From: a virus
Taxonomy: Duplodnaviria > Caudoviricetes
Virus record (IMG/VR): IMGVR_UViG_3300023179_000114
Coordinates: 1-60,358 of that record
Strand: one strand, 5' to 3'
Length of the DNA stretch: 60,358 nt
This document shows, in pieces, positions 9,833 to 46,462 of the stretch (positions are counted from its first letter, which is position 1; each line of letters starts with the position of its first letter). A program made the translations under genes and the position numbers. The notes under the pieces are model-generated. The model made no database searches and was not told where the DNA came from. It was given only the letters and a program-made list of their open reading frames with translations.

Positions 9833-11224
9833 CTATTTTAGATTTAATAAATATTTAGCTTGACCACAATCATAAATCTTAAATAAATCTTTTGCATATC
9901 CACTATTTCCTGGAAATTTCAGTCTATGAAAAGTTTCAAAACCATCCGTCCATCTAAAGCTAGGATAAATATGAATATAATCAAAACCCAAATTTTTCAG
10001 ATAATGGCCTTTACCATATCTTTTATCTATAAAGGTCATAATACTGTCGGGCTTTTTGTCATTAATTGCAAATTTTAATAATCTACTAAAGGCTCCGGTA
10101 ACAGTATAAAATTTACTATTACAAAAACGACTAATTTCATAGTCTTTATTTCTGTTTCTTTTTAATCTTAGGGCAGCAACAATTTCTTCTTTAAACTTTA
10201 AAACATATGTGGTGCCTCTACCCTTGCCCATTAAATGATTGGTCTCATAATAAATATCAGCAGTTTTATCCTCTATTTTATGAATACTGCATTTTCTAGC
10301 AAATAGTTTATTAGATTTGCCAAGCCTATTTAGAACCATACTCTTAACTATTTCAAATTTATCTCTAATTTCGTCCTCTCTAAAAAATAAGCTATCATAA
10401 TTAGCATTTTCATAGGCTGTTTTTTTGTTAAAATGATAATTCATATCAACTTTGGCAACATCACTGTGCCAATATAGACCATCTACTTCTATTAGAAGAT
10501 TATCAACTTTAAAATCTGCAATTTTTTTATCTATACGAAATTGAGTAACATAATTAATATTATAATATTGTAAAAAATCTTCGAAGGTTTTTTCTAGTTT
10601 AGTTTTGAATGGTTCCATTTTTATAGCTTCTTCCATTCCATATTTATTAACTAATTTTCCAAAATGAGATCTAGAAAATCCGATTTCTTTGGCTAGATCT
10701 GGCCTAGATTTACCTTCATAAGTTTCAATAATACCCTTATCAATTTTTGTTTGTTTCATTTTTTGTGCTGCTTTTTTAGCCGTATCAGAATATTTCATAA
10801 TATTATCTACGCCATATCTATTTAATAAAGTTTCTTTTTGTTTCTCAATTATTGATTGAACTAACATAGGATTTTCATTACCATATTTTTTTAAATTTGT
10901 TTTTTTAATTTGTTCTTTAAATTCTTGTGATTGTAATCTGTCTATATTGGTATTTCTAATTTTGGACCTAACTTCTTGTCTCTGGGCTGAATTTTTAACA
11001 CCATGTTTACGCAAACTCATATCTTCACGTTTTTTATATTTACATTGTAATTTACCACAAGCATCTTTAGCTACAATTTTTCTTTGTTTTAAATACGCTT
11101 TATATGTTTTAATAATATGATCAGAACAATAATCACATTTTACATAAACATCTCTAGAAGAGCCAGCAGATAAATCTTCTGGTCTATATCCATATTTTTC
11201 TTTTGTTAATTCTAAATCTATCAT
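9833..11224 (-). CDS. Hef-like free-standing homing endonuclease
   Basis: N-terminal CxxC and KYG repeats, ADFKVDNLLIEVDGLYWH (Vsr/DUF559-like), then ARKC...EISRFC...GAFSRLLK...DKRYG. Confidence 0.7.
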   Translation of the reverse strand: MIDLELTKEKYGYRPEDLSAGSSRDVYVKCDYCSDHIIKTYKAYLKQRKIVAKDACGKLQCKYKKREDMSLRKHGVKNSAQRQEVRSKIRNTNIDRLQSQEFKEQIKKTNLKKYGNENPMLVQSIIEKQKETLLNRYGVDNIMKYSDTAKKAAQKMKQTKIDKGIIETYEGKSRPDLAKEIGFSRSHFGKLVNKYGMEEAIKMEPFKTKLEKTFEDFLQYYNINYVTQFRIDKKIADFKVDNLLIEVDGLYWHSDVAKVDMNYHFNKKTAYENANYDSLFFREDEIRDKFEIVKSMVLNRLGKSNKLFARKCSIHKIEDKTADIYYETNHLMGKGRGTTYVLKFKEEIVAALRLKRNRNKDYEISRFCNSKFYTVTGAFSRLLKFAINDKKPDSIMTFIDKRYGKGHYLKNLGFDYIHIYPSFRWTDGFETFHRLKFPGNSGYAKDLFKIYDCGQAKYLLNLK

Positions 11225-11281
11225 TGTCTTTCCTTATTATAAGAGAGATCAGACCAAGCATAGTCCCCACTTATAATAATA

Positions 11282-11310
11282 TAAAAAGAGCTACCATCAA
11301 GATAGCTCTT
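11282..11310 (-). terminator. Rho-independent terminator after major capsid gene
   Basis: AAGAGCTA/TAGCTCTT stem followed by a T-run on the minus strand. Confidence 0.7.
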
Positions 11311-16774: not shown

Positions 16775-19700
16775 TTATCGATAAATACCTGTATAAATAT
16801 CGTCATCTCCATTAACAACAGACGTGAACCATTCGGGCCCTTTGTATAGTTGAGAATCTGAAGATCCTATTAAGTCTTTAGAGTTGCCTCCTACTACATC
16901 GTAATCCAATGGTTGCAATGTTCTATGTAGTTGTCTAGCTATCATATTAGCTATTAATAAAGAGCTATATCTATCTTTTCTTAATCTGCCCTTTTTACCA
17001 TTAGGTAATTTAACTTCTGGAGTATCCCATCTATCTCTAGCATTTGGTCCTGTGCTAGTTTGAGTCATAACAATAGTTGTTAATTCATTTTTTAGTTCTT
17101 CTATCTCTAAAATACATTCACTTAAGCTATCATAAAGTGGATTCAAATCAGATTCTATTATATTTTTGCCTTCTTGTTCCATAGCTAATCCTAATGTTAA
17201 ATTATCAAAATGTGGAAATAATAGCGTCTTATCTTCAAAATCTTTTCTTAAGCCATGATTAGCTTGGCTGGTCCAATCGGCCTTAGCAAATTGTACTAAT
17301 TCTAAAATATGCAGACCTTGTTGAGAATCAGTGTCTTTGTTTTTGTCATAATTAATAATAGGCCATATTAATTGCTCATTCTCTTTTAGTTTAGCCGGAT
17401 CGTGTAATGATTCTTCTATAGCTACTCCTCCTCCTTGGGCATCCATCCCTATACGAATAGGAGGAAAAGTTTTCATTAAATCTCGTATTTTTCTAGCACA
17501 AAAACTATAAAAATCATGTTCTGTTGCTAATCCAATTTTTTGTCTTTCTTTAAAATTAGTACGATTAGTAGCCCAACAATAAACTATACGAGAATGAGAA
17601 GGATGAACTTCTAAAATTACAATACTAAAATTATCTTGCTCACTAGCGGGATCTACGCCATATACATAGTGACAAGCTGGATCTCCTTTGGTCATAGCAT
17701 TAAACATAACTGGTTTATTATTAATAATAATAGGATGAGTGTCTTGTACAACACAACTCTCTATTAAGCTTCTTCTAAAGAATCCTTGACTATCATTAAC
17801 AAAACAAGCAGCATATTCCATATTATATATACCAGCATGAATAGTAGCTTTGGCTCTACTTACTTGTTTGTCATCCATAAAGCCTTTAGGAATTAACTCA
17901 TAAGGAATACGAATAATGCTATAATCTTTCCAATTAAAATTACTTGGTACTTCTCCACCAAACACATCTTCTAATTTTTTGATATCTCCTTTGCTTTCTA
18001 TAATGCTTTTGTATCTTTTCCAATAATTAGCAAAATGCTTAAACCCATAATCAGCTGTGCCACTAATAACAGCTTGATTATTCATTTTTTTAGAAATTGT
18101 ATCTAAATCATCTTGCCAAACCCCAGCTTCTTTCATAGCTAATCTTTTAGCTTCATTCTTTACATTCTGAATAGGACTAGCGCTAACAGCAGCGAATCCC
18201 GATACAACTGTTTCATAAATATCTGGAGAGATACTACTAAACTCATCTGCTAAAATAATATGAGCACGCAAACCTCTAATTTTATCCCCATTTCCTAATG
18301 GGATAGCAATAGCCCAGCTATCTCCTAATCTTAAAGTACATCTATCAACATCTCGTCGTGGTCCATCTTCTCCTCCACTAAAAATACTACGTAAAATAGG
18401 ACTATTTTTCCATATATTCTCCATATACTCAAAAATAATTTTACTTTGTCTAAAGGCAGCACCAACAATAACCACCTTGGTCCCGGGATAAAAACTGCAT
18501 CTTAATACAGCATATAATGCTAGTAAAAATGAATTATGAGTTACTATATAATCTTTAGTTATATATGTTTTATCAGCATTATCGACACTAATACAATATC
18601 CTTCCCCTTTTCCTATATATTCTATATTAGTAATAAATACTTTATTATACTTGGAAGAACCCTGCTTAGAAATAGGATGTTCTAAATAATTGTTTAGTTT
18701 TCTAGATAGGCTAAAGATTGGAGTTTTTGTATAAATAGTTACAGTATTATAATCTGCATATCTTTTACCATTAAACCAAGATTCTCTAATAGAATGCTTA
18801 CAATGCAGACCCACTGATCTTGCTACGTTCAAAAAGTCTTTACATAATTGTGTAGATACTGTTGAATAAACTATATTCGATCTTTTAGCCGTACCATCAG
18901 TATCCATTAATCCTCTAATAAGTTCGAGTTTTTGATTATATGATGAGTATTGGTATGCTTGTGGTATGAATTTGGTATGAGAATTACTTGGAAACAAACC
19001 AAGTTGTTCTAATAGTTTGTGGAAAGATAGTAGTTTTTTATCTTTTTTATTAATTCTATATTTTAAATTACCATAACTTTTTAAGTAATACCCATCTGGC
19101 AATAAAGACTGTACTTTATCTATTATTTCTTGATCTTTACTAGTAATTATTATTCCTGAGGTTGTCATACCTCCATCTCCTAGCAATACTCCTAAAACGT
19201 AAGGATGGATAATTAGATCTTGTTCTTGTTCTTCTAATAAAGGTTTATTAACTGGTAATGCGTATCTATACTCTTTGCCATTACTTTTAGCTCCTATTCT
19301 ATTCCAAACATAACTATCAATCATTTGTTTAGTAGTTAACTCTGACCAAATTTCTGTATTTTTTTTACGATTATTATTTTTGTCCCAAACTTTCCACATA
19401 TGGTCTTCACAACATTCTATAGATCTACCGTCTCTCAAAGTTATTCTATACATATTGACATTAAACTGTTTTTCTGTTTTAGATATTACATTAGTTAATT
19501 TACCATCAGAACCATATACCTTATCTCCTATTTGTATATCTTCCATAGTTTTCCAACCGTCTTTAACTCTTATTAATTCATTAGATCTTAATAATTTACT
19601 GAATCCTCGACTTCCAATTAACATAGGAAAAGGCCTATTCCATATCTCTTGTAAGACTAACATCTGCATAGGATGTAGTTCTATATTAAATAATAGCTTA

Positions 19701-19870
19701 CATGTTGATCCCAAGTATTTAGGATCTCTTAATAATCTTATGAGATGCAAATCAGGATTCTCTATGTCTGCTTTATTTCTATGAATCATAGGATTATTAG
19801 AAAGATCTAACTTTGATAGATCTCCTAATCCTAGCCAAGCGTCATCAAATTGGTGTGAACTATTAATCAT
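16775..19870 (-). CDS. terL: Terminase large subunit (intein-containing)
   Basis: Walker A GSRGFSK|S, GDKIRGLRAHIILADE (Walker B), GVDPA nuclease motif, KDRYS. Confidence 0.92.
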   Translation of the reverse strand: MINSSHQFDDAWLGLGDLSKLDLSNNPMIHRNKADIENPDLHLIRLLRDPKYLGSTCKLLFNIELHPMQMLVLQEIWNRPFPMLIGSRGFSKLLRSNELIRVKDGWKTMEDIQIGDKVYGSDGKLTNVISKTEKQFNVNMYRITLRDGRSIECCEDHMWKVWDKNNNRKKNTEIWSELTTKQMIDSYVWNRIGAKSNGKEYRYALPVNKPLLEEQEQDLIIHPYVLGVLLGDGGMTTSGIIITSKDQEIIDKVQSLLPDGYYLKSYGNLKYRINKKDKKLLSFHKLLEQLGLFPSNSHTKFIPQAYQYSSYNQKLELIRGLMDTDGTAKRSNIVYSTVSTQLCKDFLNVARSVGLHCKHSIRESWFNGKRYADYNTVTIYTKTPIFSLSRKLNNYLEHPISKQGSSKYNKVFITNIEYIGKGEGYCISVDNADKTYITKDYIVTHNSFLLALYAVLRCSFYPGTKVVIVGAAFRQSKIIFEYMENIWKNSPILRSIFSGGEDGPRRDVDRCTLRLGDSWAIAIPLGNGDKIRGLRAHIILADEFSSISPDIYETVVSGFAAVSASPIQNVKNEAKRLAMKEAGVWQDDLDTISKKMNNQAVISGTADYGFKHFANYWKRYKSIIESKGDIKKLEDVFGGEVPSNFNWKDYSIIRIPYELIPKGFMDDKQVSRAKATIHAGIYNMEYAACFVNDSQGFFRRSLIESCVVQDTHPIIINNKPVMFNAMTKGDPACHYVYGVDPASEQDNFSIVILEVHPSHSRIVYCWATNRTNFKERQKIGLATEHDFYSFCARKIRDLMKTFPPIRIGMDAQGGGVAIEESLHDPAKLKENEQLIWPIINYDKNKDTDSQQGLHILELVQFAKADWTSQANHGLRKDFEDKTLLFPHFDNLTLGLAMEQEGKNIIESDLNPLYDSLSECILEIEELKNELTTIVMTQTSTGPNARDRWDTPEVKLPNGKKGRLRKDRYSSLLIANMIARQLHRTLQPLDYDVVGGNSKDLIGSSDSQLYKGPEWFTSVVNGDDDIYTGIYR
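18533..19594 (-). mobile_element. Class-3 intein (354 aa) with LAGLIDADG endonuclease inserted in the TerL Walker A motif
   Basis: Starts LLRSNE..., block B CCEDHMW, LGVLLGDG and LIRGLMDTDG, block F YCISVD, ends VTHN followed by Ser+1. Confidence 0.9.
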
Positions 19871-34841: not shown

Positions 34842-34914
34842 GCCCCTGTAGCTCAGTAGATAGAGCGGCGAGCTTCTACCTCGCGGGTCGGGAGTGCAAC
34901 TCTCTCCAGGGGTA
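34842..34914 (+). tRNA. tRNA-Arg(UCU)
   Basis: GCCCCTG/CAGGGGT acceptor, GCGAG-CT TCT AC-CTCGC, T-loop TGCAACT; no encoded CCA. Confidence 0.9.
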
Positions 34915-35499
34915 CTATTTTTCTTGATAATGTATTTCTCTGTGACAATTACTACATAAGATAATACATTTATCTATTTCAGTTTTAATATCTTCTAGAG
35001 AAGCTTTTTTATTTCTGAGCATAGCACCTATTCCATCTGCCTTATTATCTTCTATATGATGGAAATCTAAACATTCTGGTGATGATAATCCGCATTTGCA
35101 ACATGAAGATTTTTGTTTTAACTCTAATACATATCTAGCTTTTTTAGTAAGGTATTTGTATGTATTGGTATGTTCTTTCCTATGACAGTTTGAGCATATA
35201 ATGTCGCATTTATTTATTTCTGCTAATACTATTTCTGTGGAATATCCATGACGAATAAGATTACATACTGTATCTTTTTTTGTCTCTGGATTTCTATGAT
35301 GAAAATCTAGACAATAGAATCTAGTCTCTCCACAGATTTTACATGGGGTAGTCTCTTTAAGATTTTGAACTAGAGTTCTGTTATGATCTTTAGTTTTGTT
35401 CTTATATCTCTGTTTATATACCTTAACTCTGTCAATATTTTTATTAGCCCATTTGGTATTATTGGCTATTTTAGCTTTGCTTGTTTTATTCTTTTTCAT
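34915..35499 (-). CDS. HNH endonuclease with two tandem HNH domains
   Basis: Two copies of CxxCG...CLDFHH...KC...CSNCHR..H. Confidence 0.85.
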   Translation of the reverse strand: MKKNKTSKAKIANNTKWANKNIDRVKVYKQRYKNKTKDHNRTLVQNLKETTPCKICGETRFYCLDFHHRNPETKKDTVCNLIRHGYSTEIVLAEINKCDIICSNCHRKEHTNTYKYLTKKARYVLELKQKSSCCKCGLSSPECLDFHHIEDNKADGIGAMLRNKKASLEDIKTEIDKCIILCSNCHREIHYQEK

Positions 35500-37671: not shown

Positions 37672-37818
37672 GATCAAAATCAAGGTCAAGCAACCTTGGG
37701 AGTTGAGTACTGGACATCGAGAAGAACGTAATACGTTGTTTGATAACCGCCCCAAGCGTCAGCGAACACGACGAGATATTGACAAGGGGTGGAGAGAAGA
37801 GTATGATATGTAGGCTTA

Positions 37819-37891
37819 GCCGGTATAACTCAGTTAGCAGAGTGTCAAATTTGTAATTTGAATGTCGTGGGTGCAAATCCTACTACCGGCT
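37819..37891 (+). tRNA. tRNA-Thr(UGU)
   Basis: GCCGGTA/TACCGGC, TCAAA-TT TGT AA-TTTGA, T-loop TGCAAAT. Confidence 0.9.
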
Positions 37892-37892
37892 C

Positions 37893-38159
37893 TCGGGAAT
37901 GGTGTAACGGTAGCACAAGTGACTTTAACCAACTGGAGTGCATTTAGAGAAATCTTAATGTAGAATCTCTCAAATTCGGGGAACGCTTTAAAATGCTAAT
38001 CCCGAGCCAAGCCGGAAACGGAAGGTGTAACGACTTGACGGGAGACGCCTAAAACACAAGTCAAGGCGAAGGTAAAGTCTAGACCACAAACCGATAGGGT
38101 AACGAAAGTTATAGTGGTAAGTGGATCACTTTGTCTAGGTTCAAATCCTAGTTCCCGAA
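37893..38159 (+). tRNA. tRNA-Gln(UUG) interrupted by a group I intron (exons 37893-37925 and 38122-38159)
   Basis: TCGGGAA/TTCCCGA acceptor, AGTGA-CTT|TGGA-TCACT anticodon arm, CTAGG TTCAAAT CCTAG T-arm. Confidence 0.85.
37926..38121 (+). mobile_element. Group I self-splicing intron (196 nt, IC3-like, no ORF)
   Basis: P element AAATTCGGGGAA, Q AATCCCGAGC, R GTGTAACGACT, S AAGGTAAAGTC; P1 ACUU/GAGU with U.G; terminal G. Confidence 0.85.
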
Positions 38160-38854
38160 TTTAATTTTTGCCAGTAGCCTCTCCGATTTGGAATTTGTAT
38201 ATCATAAGACTTAGCCCATTTTCGAATAGCGTTATCTGATACTCCGTATCTTTTTGCTATGGTTGTCATGGGGTAAGAATTAACAAGATTTTCCAGTTCT
38301 TCCTTCGACGGTCTGTCTGTTTTTCTCAACCAAGGTTTTGGTCCTCCTCTACCTTTTTTGATTTTAGGAGATTTTTTAAAACGTTTACCAGCATAGGTAT
38401 CTGTTTGACTATGACAATTAGGACATAAGAAACATAAATTATCTAATCTATTATCATTTGGAATTCCATTTTTATGTTCCAGTTGTAGGGATATTTTTTT
38501 ATTATTCCATGTGTCTTTTAGGCCACACTCTGCACATTGGTATGTGATAAGATTATTGCGAATAATTCTGCTTTTGATAGAGCTGCGATTGGATGTGCTG
38601 TTTACACAAAAATATTCTTTATTAGTTTTTTTTGGAGTGAATCGTTTACCTTTATTAGCACTTTTACCCAAAGTAATATGTGATAAATCTATATTTTCAT
38701 CTTTAGCTCTACGCTTAACCGTATGATGGTTTCCTCCTTTATTGTTCATTCCAAAATATCGTAATATATCAGCGATAGTATTAGATCTAGAAACTAATGC
38801 TTTGAACTCCTGTGAGGGAATTGACCATATTATACTTCGTTTTTTTCTATTCAT
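38141..38854 (-). CDS. HNH homing endonuclease with C-terminal HTH
   Basis: CAECG...LQLEHKNG...DNRLDNLCFLCPNCHSQT; IAKRYGVSDNAIRKW. Confidence 0.9.
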   Translation of the reverse strand: MNRKKRSIIWSIPSQEFKALVSRSNTIADILRYFGMNNKGGNHHTVKRRAKDENIDLSHITLGKSANKGKRFTPKKTNKEYFCVNSTSNRSSIKSRIIRNNLITYQCAECGLKDTWNNKKISLQLEHKNGIPNDNRLDNLCFLCPNCHSQTDTYAGKRFKKSPKIKKGRGGPKPWLRKTDRPSKEELENLVNSYPMTTIAKRYGVSDNAIRKWAKSYDIQIPNRRGYWQKLNSGTRI

Positions 38855-38942
38855 TGTTTACTCCTTATTGGTACCATATATAATACACCAATTTGTTGTC
38901 TTGACAAGTTGGATTATTATGCTATAATAGCCTAGAAAATGA

Positions 38943-39014
38943 TGCCCTGTAGCACAATGGTTGTGCGTTCCGCTGTTAACGGAGTGGTTGTAGGTTCGAG
39001 TCCTACCGGGGCAG
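38943..39014 (+). tRNA. tRNA-Asn(GUU)
   Basis: TGCCCTG/CGGGGCA, TTCCG-CT GTT AA-CGGAG, TTCGAGT. Confidence 0.92.
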
Positions 39015-39017
39015 TTT

Positions 39018-39104
39018 GGGAACTTGGCAGAGCGGACGAATGCGTCTGATTACTAATCAGAAGAGGGTTAAAATCCTCCGGGGGTTCGAATCCCTCAGTT
39101 CCCG
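39018..39104 (+). tRNA. tRNA-Ser(ACU), class II
   Basis: GGGAACT/AGTTCCC, TCTGA-TT ACT AA-TCAGA, long variable arm, G73. Confidence 0.85.
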
Positions 39105-39243
39105 TTGTAAGCTATTGAAAATAAAAGACTTAGAACAAATCGGGCGGCGAATTTTTGACGTAAGTACTTGAGCCATAACGACTTAGGATTTTCTCAAGAT
39201 TGTGGTTGACAACTGACGATAAGTGTATTAGAATACACATCAT

Positions 39244-39439: not shown

Positions 39440-39511
39440 GGGAGATAAAGTTAGATAGCGAACTAGGGGTCTTTTAAACCCCAGAGCAGAGTGCAAGTCT
39501 CTGATCTCCCA
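39440..39511 (+). tRNA. tRNA-Lys(UUU)
   Basis: GGGAGAT/ATCTCCC, GGGGT-CT TTT AA-ACCCC, T-loop TGCAAGT. Confidence 0.8.
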
Positions 39512-45244: not shown

Positions 45245-45330
45245 TCTTATTTTATCATACAAACAAACCCCGGATGCCTCTTAACAATGCACACTTTCCG
45301 GGGTCTTGTTTATCTATTCAAGGAGGAATT

Positions 45331-45754: not shown

Positions 45755-46462
45755 ATGTCCAGAAAAACTAGTCAAATTTGGAAAATAGATAATAGTAGTC
45801 TACAACATATACTTGATACATCCTCAAGTATTGTAGACGTTTTGAGACAACTTAATCTCAATCCTCATAGTGGAAATCATAGAACTTTATATAAAAGACT
45901 TGAGGAAGAAAAGTTTTCTTTAGATAGGTTAAAAGTTAATAGAGCAGAGAGACTTAAATTTATTAAAAAAAGCATAAAAGTTTTTTCTGATATTTTTATT
46001 GAAAATTCAACCTGCAATAGGACAAATATTAGATCAAAAATTATTAAACATAATCTTATACCTTATGAGTGCAGTAAATGTAAAAATAAAGGTAATTGGC
46101 TCAACGAAAAACTATCACTACAGTTGGAACATATCAATGGTATCGGTAATGATCATCGTTTGTCTAACTTAACTTTTCTTTGTCCGAATTGTCATAGTCA
46201 AACAAAAACATTTGCTGGAAAGAAAAATAGAAAAGAGCCAAAAAAATGTATAGATTGCCATGCTCAAACGATATTAAGGTCAAGTACAAGATGTAATAAA
46301 TGTAGTTCCATATTAAAAGGTAAAAAACAGCGCAAATTTAATATTGATAAAACAGAACTAGAAAAATTATTGAAAACAAACAATATAAATCAAATTAGTA
46401 AAAAATATAATGTCTCATTTACAACAGTTAAAAAATACTGCATAAAATATGGTCTCATCTAA
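45755..46462 (+). CDS. HNH homing endonuclease (paralog of 38141..38854)
   Basis: LQLEHING...DHRLSNL.FLCPNCHSQT; C-terminal HTH. Confidence 0.9.
   Translation: MSRKTSQIWKIDNSSLQHILDTSSSIVDVLRQLNLNPHSGNHRTLYKRLEEEKFSLDRLKVNRAERLKFIKKSIKVFSDIFIENSTCNRTNIRSKIIKHNLIPYECSKCKNKGNWLNEKLSLQLEHINGIGNDHRLSNLTFLCPNCHSQTKTFAGKKNRKEPKKCIDCHAQTILRSSTRCNKCSSILKGKKQRKFNIDKTELEKLLKTNNINQISKKYNVSFTTVKKYCIKYGLI

Follow-up and report, generated by a model that had tools for sequence, protein, structure and literature searches.

A group I intron that splits the anticodon of a phage tRNA-Gln(UUG) gene, and a neighbouring HNH endonuclease as its likely mobility partner

Introduction

Can a phage draw a working glutamine tRNA from a gene that is cut through its anticodon by a group I intron, and what would have carried the intron there? 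The question is raised by positions 37893-38159 of IMG/VR virus record IMGVR_UViG_3300023179_000114, a 60,358-base stretch that was analysed whole and is called the window here, and in which an initial annotation had placed such an intron in a tRNA-Gln(UUG) gene. The reading that we regard as very likely is that the locus encodes the working tRNA-Gln of an AT-rich freshwater phage, interrupted at U34/U35 by a compact ribozyme of the bacterial tRNA-intron type which most likely has an HNH nuclease as its mobility partner. The record has an estimated completeness of 43% and a G+C content of 35.3%, and its genes include tail-fibre-like, terminase-like and several homing-endonuclease-like ones.

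The classical bacterial settings of such introns are Leu.3Ug, Arg.5Ug, fMet.2Ug and Ile2.5Ug, classed as IC3 in the database cited by the Williams 2020 preprint. That preprint, based on bacterial and archaeal assemblies, raises the number of bacterial tRNA intron settings from 4 to 21, and its text mentions neither phages nor Gln. A 2014 review of bacterial group I introns (PMC3984707) holds that all phage introns known by then lay in protein-coding genes, despite the many tRNA genes of phages.

Results

Exons and splice junction

Positions 37893-38159 are a tRNA-Gln(UUG) gene split by a 196-nucleotide (nt) group I intron without an open reading frame (ORF), in the following parts.

37893-37925, plus strand: 5' exon of tRNA-Gln(UUG), with the acceptor 5' strand, the D arm, the anticodon stem 5' strand and C32, U33 and U34
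37926-38121, plus strand: ORF-less group I intron, 196 nt (Rfam RF00028)
38122-38159, plus strand: 3' exon of tRNA-Gln(UUG), with U35, G36, G37 and A38, the anticodon stem 3' strand, a 4-nt variable loop, the T arm and the acceptor 3' strand

The intron is inserted between loop positions 3 and 4 of the 7-nt anticodon loop (U34|U35), and the joined exons restore the loop CUU|UGGA with the anticodon UUG. Both the acceptor (TCGGGAA/TTCCCGA, with U1-A72) and the anticodon stem (AGTGA/TCACT) are fully paired in the joined tRNA; the discriminator is A38159 and CCA is not encoded. Rules for tRNA-Gln identity come from work in E. coli, and the identity-type bases U1-A72, U35 and G36 are all present here along with the discriminator A and a G in position 37.

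The boundaries were examined by joining every upstream position that ends in U to the base after G38121 and submitting the products to ARAGORN. Only excision of 196 nt gave a canonical tRNA, a 71-nt tRNA-Gln(ttg), and excisions of 197 or 195 nt gave anticodons of 2 or 4 letters. The initial annotation had described a 196-nt insertion spliced after U34 and after G38121 to leave the loop CUUUGGA; its coordinates agree with ours, and the predicted excision is the sole canonical one. Its main claim, that the anticodon of a phage tRNA-Gln(UUG) is interrupted by a group I intron, is borne out by the junction test together with the covariance-model search that it had pointed to. There, model positions 1-253 of RF00028 matched 37916-38102 (E 7.3e-11) and scored 53.7 bits, the gathering score being 50; it was the sole match of this model in the window.

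Natural DNA with the same joint was sought by placing contigs from four lake or freshwater DNA runs, belonging to four studies, on the region. A joint of 37925 to 38122 that skips exactly 196 bases was found in all four (one contig in run X2, one in X6, two in X7 and three in X8).

When IMG/VR contigs were searched with the 5' exon, three were returned (L028, L062 and L063), and in 3/3 the same tRNA-Gln is split by an intron, the lengths being 199, 195 and 202 nt. A 25-nt stretch of the 5' exon (37901-37925) is identical in all of them. By eye, the exons are identical in three of the four Gln copies, and L063 has two compensated changes in the acceptor stem, upstream of 37901. The four introns are 75-90% alike, with compensated changes in P2, P3, P6a, P8 and P9b, and they form one clade (97 by the Shimodaira-Hasegawa-like approximate likelihood-ratio test) in a tree that does not resolve how the Gln, Leu, Lys and Ile groups branch from one another.

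The expectation that standard tRNA finders may miss this gene proved correct. Neither ARAGORN nor the Rfam tRNA model called the split tRNA-Gln in the window, and the intron mode of ARAGORN miscalls it as tRNA-Ser(tga) with a 177-nt intron; the tRNAscan-SE 2.0 paper states that the tool was not designed for detection of group I introns. Since split tRNAs escape the first two programs and, by its authors' statement, the third, phage tRNA repertoires and analyses of codon matching will undercount them.

Structure of the intron

The sequence of the window itself served to draw the structure, which comprises the elements below.

37922-37926 with 37935-37939, plus strand: P1, with the U37925.G37936 wobble at the 5' splice site
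37933-37939, plus strand: internal guide sequence CUG-GAGU; GAGU pairs with 5' exon ACUU (P1) and CUG can pair with 3' exon UGG (P10)
37943-37958, plus strand: P2, GAAA loop
37966-37971 with 38040-38045, plus strand: P3, in a pseudoknot with P7
37976-37981 with 38000-38005, plus strand: P4
37984-37997, plus strand: P5
38006-38026, plus strand: P6/P6a
38032-38036 with 38075-38079, plus strand: P7
38047-38067, plus strand: P8, with the receptor-like motif CCUAAA...AAGG
38083-38118, plus strand: P9/P9a/P9b, a three-way junction with a GAAA loop
38121, plus strand: terminal (omega) G, the last base of the intron

Pairing was counted in an alignment of 29 distinct relatives covering 11 helices and 51 pairs, that is 1477 cells. 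Standard pairs occupy 92.4% of the cells, a share that falls to 25-42% once the 3' partners are shifted by 1-3 columns, and both sides have changed in 32 of the 51 pairs; the observed values were reached in 0/500 shuffles. In P3 all six pairs have changed on both sides, and P7 is paired throughout (100% in the 29 relatives). As 25 of the 29 rows were collected by a motif that lies inside P9/P9b (the others being the window, L002 from a phage blastn search, and L062 and L063 from the search with the 5' exon), the invariance of the P9/P9b helices carries no weight. An independent minimum free energy fold recovered P2, P4, P5, P6a, P8, P9a, P9b and part of P7 (z = -2.1). This covariation argues that the core helices, including the P3/P7 pseudoknot, are kept and that the structure is under selection. 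The P, Q, R and S elements reported earlier are found again with covariation behind them, P and Q being the two strands of P4 (37976-37981 and 38000-38005), R the 5' strand of P7 plus the 3' strand of P3 (38032-38045) and S the 3' strand of P7 (38075-38079).

Matching of guide and host exons

The guide was sought within the first 30 intron bases of 32 distinct family members, with the U.G wobble imposed. P1 amounts to 3-5 contiguous pairs, ending in the imposed U.G, in 32/32 members, and the guide varies with the host exon: GAGU-ACUU in Leu, Gln and Lys tRNAs, GCAG-CUGU in Asn, GGUC-GACU in tRNAs with anticodon CAU and GAAU-AUUU in L054, a contig with a different tRNA-Gln(UUG) and a 225-nt intron. 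P10 has at least 3 pairs in 22 of the 32 rows, and its triplets differ likewise, with UUU-AAA in 14 Leu rows, CUG-UGG in the four Gln copies, CCA-UGG in L054, UAG-UUA in Lys and AUG-CAU. P1 has 4 pairs and P10 has 3 in the window, L028, L062 and L063 alike. The L054 guide, CCA-GAAU, fits its own AUUU and UGG exons, and the homologous guide of L029, UUAU-GAGU, makes 3 pairs in P1 and 4 in P10. The predicted guide thus follows the host tRNA. P10 had also been considered as general support for the family as a whole and was dropped, none being found in 8 of the 32 rows.

The intron family and its hosts

A 24-base motif from the 3' end of the intron was used to search IMG/VR contigs and was found in 56 of them. 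The junction test recovered a canonical tRNA in 52 of the 56 loci, with the hosts Leu(UAA) in 38, anticodon CAU in 4, Arg(UCU) in 3, Gln(UUG) in 2, Lys(UUU) in 2, and Ile(UAU), Asn(GUU) and anticodon UCA in one each. It yielded no tRNA in L017, L021, L023 and L026; two of these if not more, L023 and L026, are truncated close to the match. The tRNA species found with this backbone number at least eight (Leu UAA, Gln UUG, Lys UUU, Ile UAU, Arg UCU, Asn GUU, CAU and UCA).

In the phage collection the closest relative by blastn was the intron of LR756501, a 735-kb phage, which is 79% identical and splits a tRNA-Leu(UAA) at CUU|AAAA; in the alignment its two boundaries coincide with those of the window intron. 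RF00028 gave no match at E <= 0.01 (Rfam E-value mode) for L002 and L003, despite the L002 intron being 79% identical to that of the window, and we read these missing matches as a limit of sensitivity and not as absence.

A 21-base core motif was found in 43 bacterial genome contigs from many phyla. In the intron mode of ARAGORN their hosts were Leu(taa) in 29, Met(cat) in 8, Arg(cct) in 2, and Ile(tat), Thr(tgt) and 'tta' in one each, with one contig giving none. A Gln host was absent from these 43 contigs by that mode, whose calls were left unrefined and which also miscalled the window.

By insertion site and homology, the intron is best read as one of the bacterial group I introns of tRNA anticodon loops, and its homology to the Leu introns would place it in subgroup IC3. 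Its host, Gln(UUG), is not among Leu UAA, Arg CCU, fMet and Ile CAU. The earlier statement that the classic hosts are Leu, fMet, Ile and Arg tRNAs agrees with the classical settings cited by Williams 2020. That a Gln host is unusual stands in so far as it lies outside these four, and has to be softened in that the bacterial settings are now 21 and Gln is the host in 4 other viral contigs. The small size, also described as unusual, is not: ORF-less members of the family measure 195-257 nt, the Rfam matches of related introns in phage capsid genes span 181 nt, and 2513 phage group I introns have a mean of about 206 nt according to a 2026 paper on Jug phages (PMC12880540).

Two further observations concern hosts within the family. 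In 13 viral contigs (L011, L013, L014, L016, L032, L033, L038, L039, L041, L046, L053, L057 and L061) the split UAA tRNAs are 74-75 nt when spliced and are without the long variable arm of a normal tRNA-Leu; as the Leu label of these short tRNAs comes from the anticodon alone (ARAGORN), their Leu identity is only putative. In L015 (motif at 11262-11285, minus strand) a family intron of 620 nt lies in a 72-nt tRNA with the anticodon UCA, which reads UGA and so indicates a tRNA of the suppressor or code-4 Trp type.

The neighbouring HNH gene

The gene that follows the split tRNA converges on it.

38141-38854, minus strand: free-standing HNH endonuclease gene P0001, 237 amino acids, convergent with tRNA-Gln and overlapping its last 19 nt

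P0001 matched phrog_10822, 'HNH endonuclease', with E 8.8e-45, and 6 further HNH-annotated PHROGs were among its 9 matches. Its translation contains a Cys-pair, a His-Asn and a CPNCH motif, and a C-terminal helix-turn-helix. In Pfam it reached 16.5 bits with HNH_3, under the cut-off of 24.8, and the helix-turn-helix was likewise below threshold; NCBIfam gave only far-sub-threshold matches to HNH domains, and a sequence search of PDB found no relative (best E 0.99).

The homologues in L028, L062 and L063 are 75-80% identical and have the same place and orientation (3/3 sister contigs). Besides the window, 14 of the family loci examined have a relative of P0001, these three contigs included, and in all 14 a match lies within 710 nt of the 3' splice site of the intron; the hosts of these loci include Leu, Gln, Arg, Ile and CAU tRNAs. 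The relative is on the opposite strand just downstream of the intron in seven (L028, L062, L063, L061, L033, L029 and L060), on the same strand downstream in two (L054 and L048), inside a long intron, on the intron's strand and ahead of the guide, in three (L007, L022 and L047), and just outside the 5' end of the intron, on the tRNA's strand, in two Arg(UCU) genes (L052 and L059). This linkage suggests a homing pair, and P0001 is most likely the mobility partner of the intron, in collaborative or trans homing.

Other genes of this kind were noted in the window. A second HNH gene, on the minus strand at 34915-35499 (phrog_2255, E 1.3e-39), meets the 3' end of an uninterrupted tRNA-Arg(UCU) at 34842-34915, a convergent layout as at tRNA-Gln but without an intron. 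A paralogue of P0001 at 45755-46462 (phrog_10822, E 8.9e-39) is far from any tRNA and is preceded, 450 nt upstream, by a sub-threshold match to the abiF RNA (45268-45304; 34.2 bits, cut-off 37). A homing-endonuclease-like ORF at 9833-11224 (phrog_3339, E 9.7e-58) is situated among structural genes.

The tRNA array

The tRNA array of the window includes, by ARAGORN, Arg UCU, Thr UGU, Asn GUU, Ser, Ile UAU and Glu UUC, and the features nearest to the split gene are these.

37779-37807, plus strand: promoter-like site TTGACA, 17 nt, TATGAT, just 5' of the tRNA-Thr/tRNA-Gln pair, with 11/12 consensus positions
37819-37892, plus strand: tRNA-Thr(UGU), called by ARAGORN and with 63.1 bits in the Rfam tRNA model
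38943-39014, plus strand: tRNA-Asn(GUU), the next array gene after the HNH insertion, called by ARAGORN and with 64.4 bits in Rfam

The promoter-like site is a consensus match alone, 10 such sites being present in the region against 5.0 expected from shuffles. The tRNA-Thr abuts the split tRNA-Gln with zero spacer, and the two are probably co-transcribed. Their order recurs in L028, L062 and L063, as does the order Gln-HNH-Asn-Ser. Most tRNAs of the array read A-ending codons, which the phage prefers; for Gln, CAA accounts for 172 of 227 codons in 23 long ORFs.

Three observations stand apart from the split gene. A long-arm tRNA-Ser with the anticodon ACU (A34) is kept in all four related contigs (window 39017-39105, L028 8448-8534, L062 6498-6587 and L063 2747-2835), and an unmodified A34 is unusual for Ser. 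A weak additional tRNA match at 39441-39509, directly after tRNA-Glu, scored 32.2 bits in Rfam with a cut-off of 29 and was not called by ARAGORN. Finally, in the ORF of 1031 amino acids at 16775-19870 the terminase-large-subunit matches span residues ~84-566 alone.

Discussion

Taken together, the joined exons, the conserved core and the fit of the guide argue that the locus supplies tRNA-Gln by an ordinary group I pathway, and we infer that splicing does in fact occur. A precursor of tRNA-Thr and tRNA-Gln would be transcribed from the promoter-like site at 37779, and its intron would fold into P1-P9. The guide GAGU would pair with the exon end ACUU and set the U37925.G37936 wobble at the 5' splice site, which free guanosine would attack. 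The terminal G38121 would then occupy the G-site while CUG of the guide holds UGG of the 3' exon (P10), and ligation would release a 71-nt tRNA-Gln(UUG) reading CAA, the preferred Gln codon. On the DNA level, the target of the HNH nuclease would presumably be the intron-less tRNA-Gln: it may cut such alleles in co-infecting relatives, repair would copy the cassette of intron plus HNH gene, and the intron would shield the carrier's own gene.

Several observations weigh against this reading. The RF00028 score exceeds its cut-off by only 3.7 bits, and of 119 well-conserved columns 11 set the window apart from 25 non-Gln relatives; among the 11, 38014 and 38019 pair together in P6a, two are the 3' exon itself, and 38030 and 38031 (both in J6/7) together with 38080 are common to all four Gln copies. 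Position 37 is odd, given that bacterial tRNA-Gln usually carries A37. Two of the three P10 pairs of the window are wobbles, which makes this helix weak, and contiguous P10 is missing from 8/32 members, all of them Leu introns with UUG-GAGU. That guide would pair better with the Gln exon, a hint that these Leu introns may be the source of the Gln lineage. The intron-less joints have shorter sides of just 24-27 nt and differing flanks; they are taken as uninterrupted tRNA-Gln(UUG) genes, probably of other organisms, and so show the joined sequence to be a real tRNA but do not demonstrate an empty allele in the window phage. No intron-less allele was present among the three viral contigs found by the 5' exon search. 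Lastly, the window holds at least three further homing-endonuclease-like genes, so that the adjacency of HNH gene and intron could partly reflect general richness in such genes.

The last point leads to an alternative that we consider possible, yet doubtful, in which the HNH gene belongs to the tRNA array as a free-standing homing endonuclease in its own right. Like SegB of phage T4 it would cut at some point in the tRNA cluster of rival phages, and it would have no functional tie to the intron, both being selfish settlers of conserved tRNA DNA. The second HNH gene abutting the intron-less tRNA-Arg(UCU) fits such a picture, as do the endonuclease-like genes at 9833-11224 and 45755-46462, and SegB is a precedent for a free-standing endonuclease in a phage tRNA cluster (PMC2330249). 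One X2 contig (depth 5.3) joins 38161 to 38943 with two other letters between them, which is a variant without the HNH gene and indicates that this gene moves as a unit of its own. Against independence stand the close proximity in 14/14 loci across Leu, Gln, Arg, Ile and CAU hosts and the copies that sit inside the intron, on its strand, in L007, L022 and L047; the HNH pattern thereby follows the intron and not tRNA arrays in general.

Two other proposals concern what the intron does, and each is very improbable. If it were kept because it regulates how much mature tRNA-Gln is supplied in an infected cell, say by depending on GTP or Mg2+, its presence in 4/4 examined members of the lineage, with no empty allele seen there, would be accounted for. 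Yet the same backbone is found in eight or more tRNA species, accompanied by homing endonuclease genes, a combination that is the signature of a mobile element, and nothing links the backbone to Gln in particular. A decayed, non-splicing remnant in a tRNA-Gln pseudogene would likewise explain the score barely above the cut-off and the clade-specific changes in J6/7, and we give it little credence: every core helix is kept in the four diverged copies by compensated changes, the exons are conserved with compensation in the acceptor stem, the guide still fits both exons, and the codon served is the one preferred for Gln.

Splicing at another junction, to give another anticodon or identity such as tRNA-Ser(tga), is scarcely credible, since the call of ARAGORN with -i and the possible wobble of U37926 with G37935 are set against the 2- or 4-letter anticodons of the neighbouring excisions, the homologous Leu intron aligning at the same two boundaries, the exact 37925/38122 joint in natural DNA of 4/4 runs, and a Ser call that needs 19 intron bases as a variable arm, with its 3' boundary 19 nt before G38121.

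Returning to the intron and HNH gene as partners, one may tentatively go a step further and speculate that they constitute a two-part homing cassette on a tRNA gene, and a branch of a phage-borne lineage that has been retargeted among the tRNA species listed above by changes in no more than the few guide bases that match the sequence flanking the insertion in the anticodon loop, with a nuclease that alternates between intron-encoded and free-standing forms. The family itself provides cases from nature in which a single ribozyme backbone has been redirected to many tRNAs. The catalytic mechanism is textbook, and a pair of intron and nuclease on a tRNA gene is a testable system. Should the nuclease recognise intron-less tRNA-Gln DNA, it could cut the tRNA-Gln gene of competing phages and possibly of the host, and the intron would be the carrier's immunity.

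An ordinary mechanism is met here in a host gene and a genome type that seem undescribed in print. In the literature collection searched, no paper was found to describe group I introns in the tRNA genes of phages or in tRNA-Gln, with the settings table of Williams 2020 as a possible exception.

More weakly related cores were found in introns that interrupt mRNAs, those of the capsid gene in Pelagibacter phage HTVC120P and in Chosvirus KM23C739 (blastn identity 74-82% over 72-121 nt). In L003 (MH598807, 19433-20607) and L004 (KT997847, 21756-22832) the capsid gene is annotated as two 'capsid protein' coding sequences, with a small group I intron, a relative of that of the window, in the gap. 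L004 gives two Rfam matches (78.0 and 76.9 bits), the latter of which overlaps in part with the 3' end of the second of these coding sequences. The Jug phage introns (PMC12880540) are similar in size and ORF-less but reside in protein-coding genes and not in tRNA genes.

With the classical tRNA-Leu(UAA) introns the window intron shares the CUU| site (34/35), the U.G wobble, the terminal G and a compact architecture without an ORF. It differs from them in its host, a tRNA-Gln(UUG) in a phage, in the CUG that replaces UUU or UUG before GAGU, and in forming a Gln clade of its own. Compared by description, it also resembles the Azoarcus intron in being a small ribozyme of a tRNA anticodon loop, with GAAA tetraloops on both P2 and P9 and with motifs like a tetraloop receptor in P8 and P5. 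The Azoarcus intron splices after the third anticodon base (setting Ile2.5Ug) whereas that of the window splices, as predicted, after the first. For the Leu intron of Nostoc the Williams 2020 preprint gives the splice site as CUU/a...g/AAAA.

In collaborative homing, an ORF-less intron is associated with a free-standing endonuclease that targets its insertion site, as Hausner et al. 2014 (PMC3984707) summarise for cyanophage psbA (Zeng, Bonocora and Shub 2009) and for one further phage. The locus described here shares with those pairs an ORF-less intron beside a free-standing endonuclease gene, and in relatives the nuclease lies inside the intron, as that model predicts. In contrast to the psbA pairs, the putative target is a tRNA gene and not a protein-coding gene. 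T4 SegB (PMC2330249), too, is the product of a free-standing endonuclease gene embedded among phage tRNA genes, and it causes this region to be inherited preferentially, but it is a GIY-YIG enzyme with no intron partner, whereas P0001 is of the HNH type and linked to an intron.

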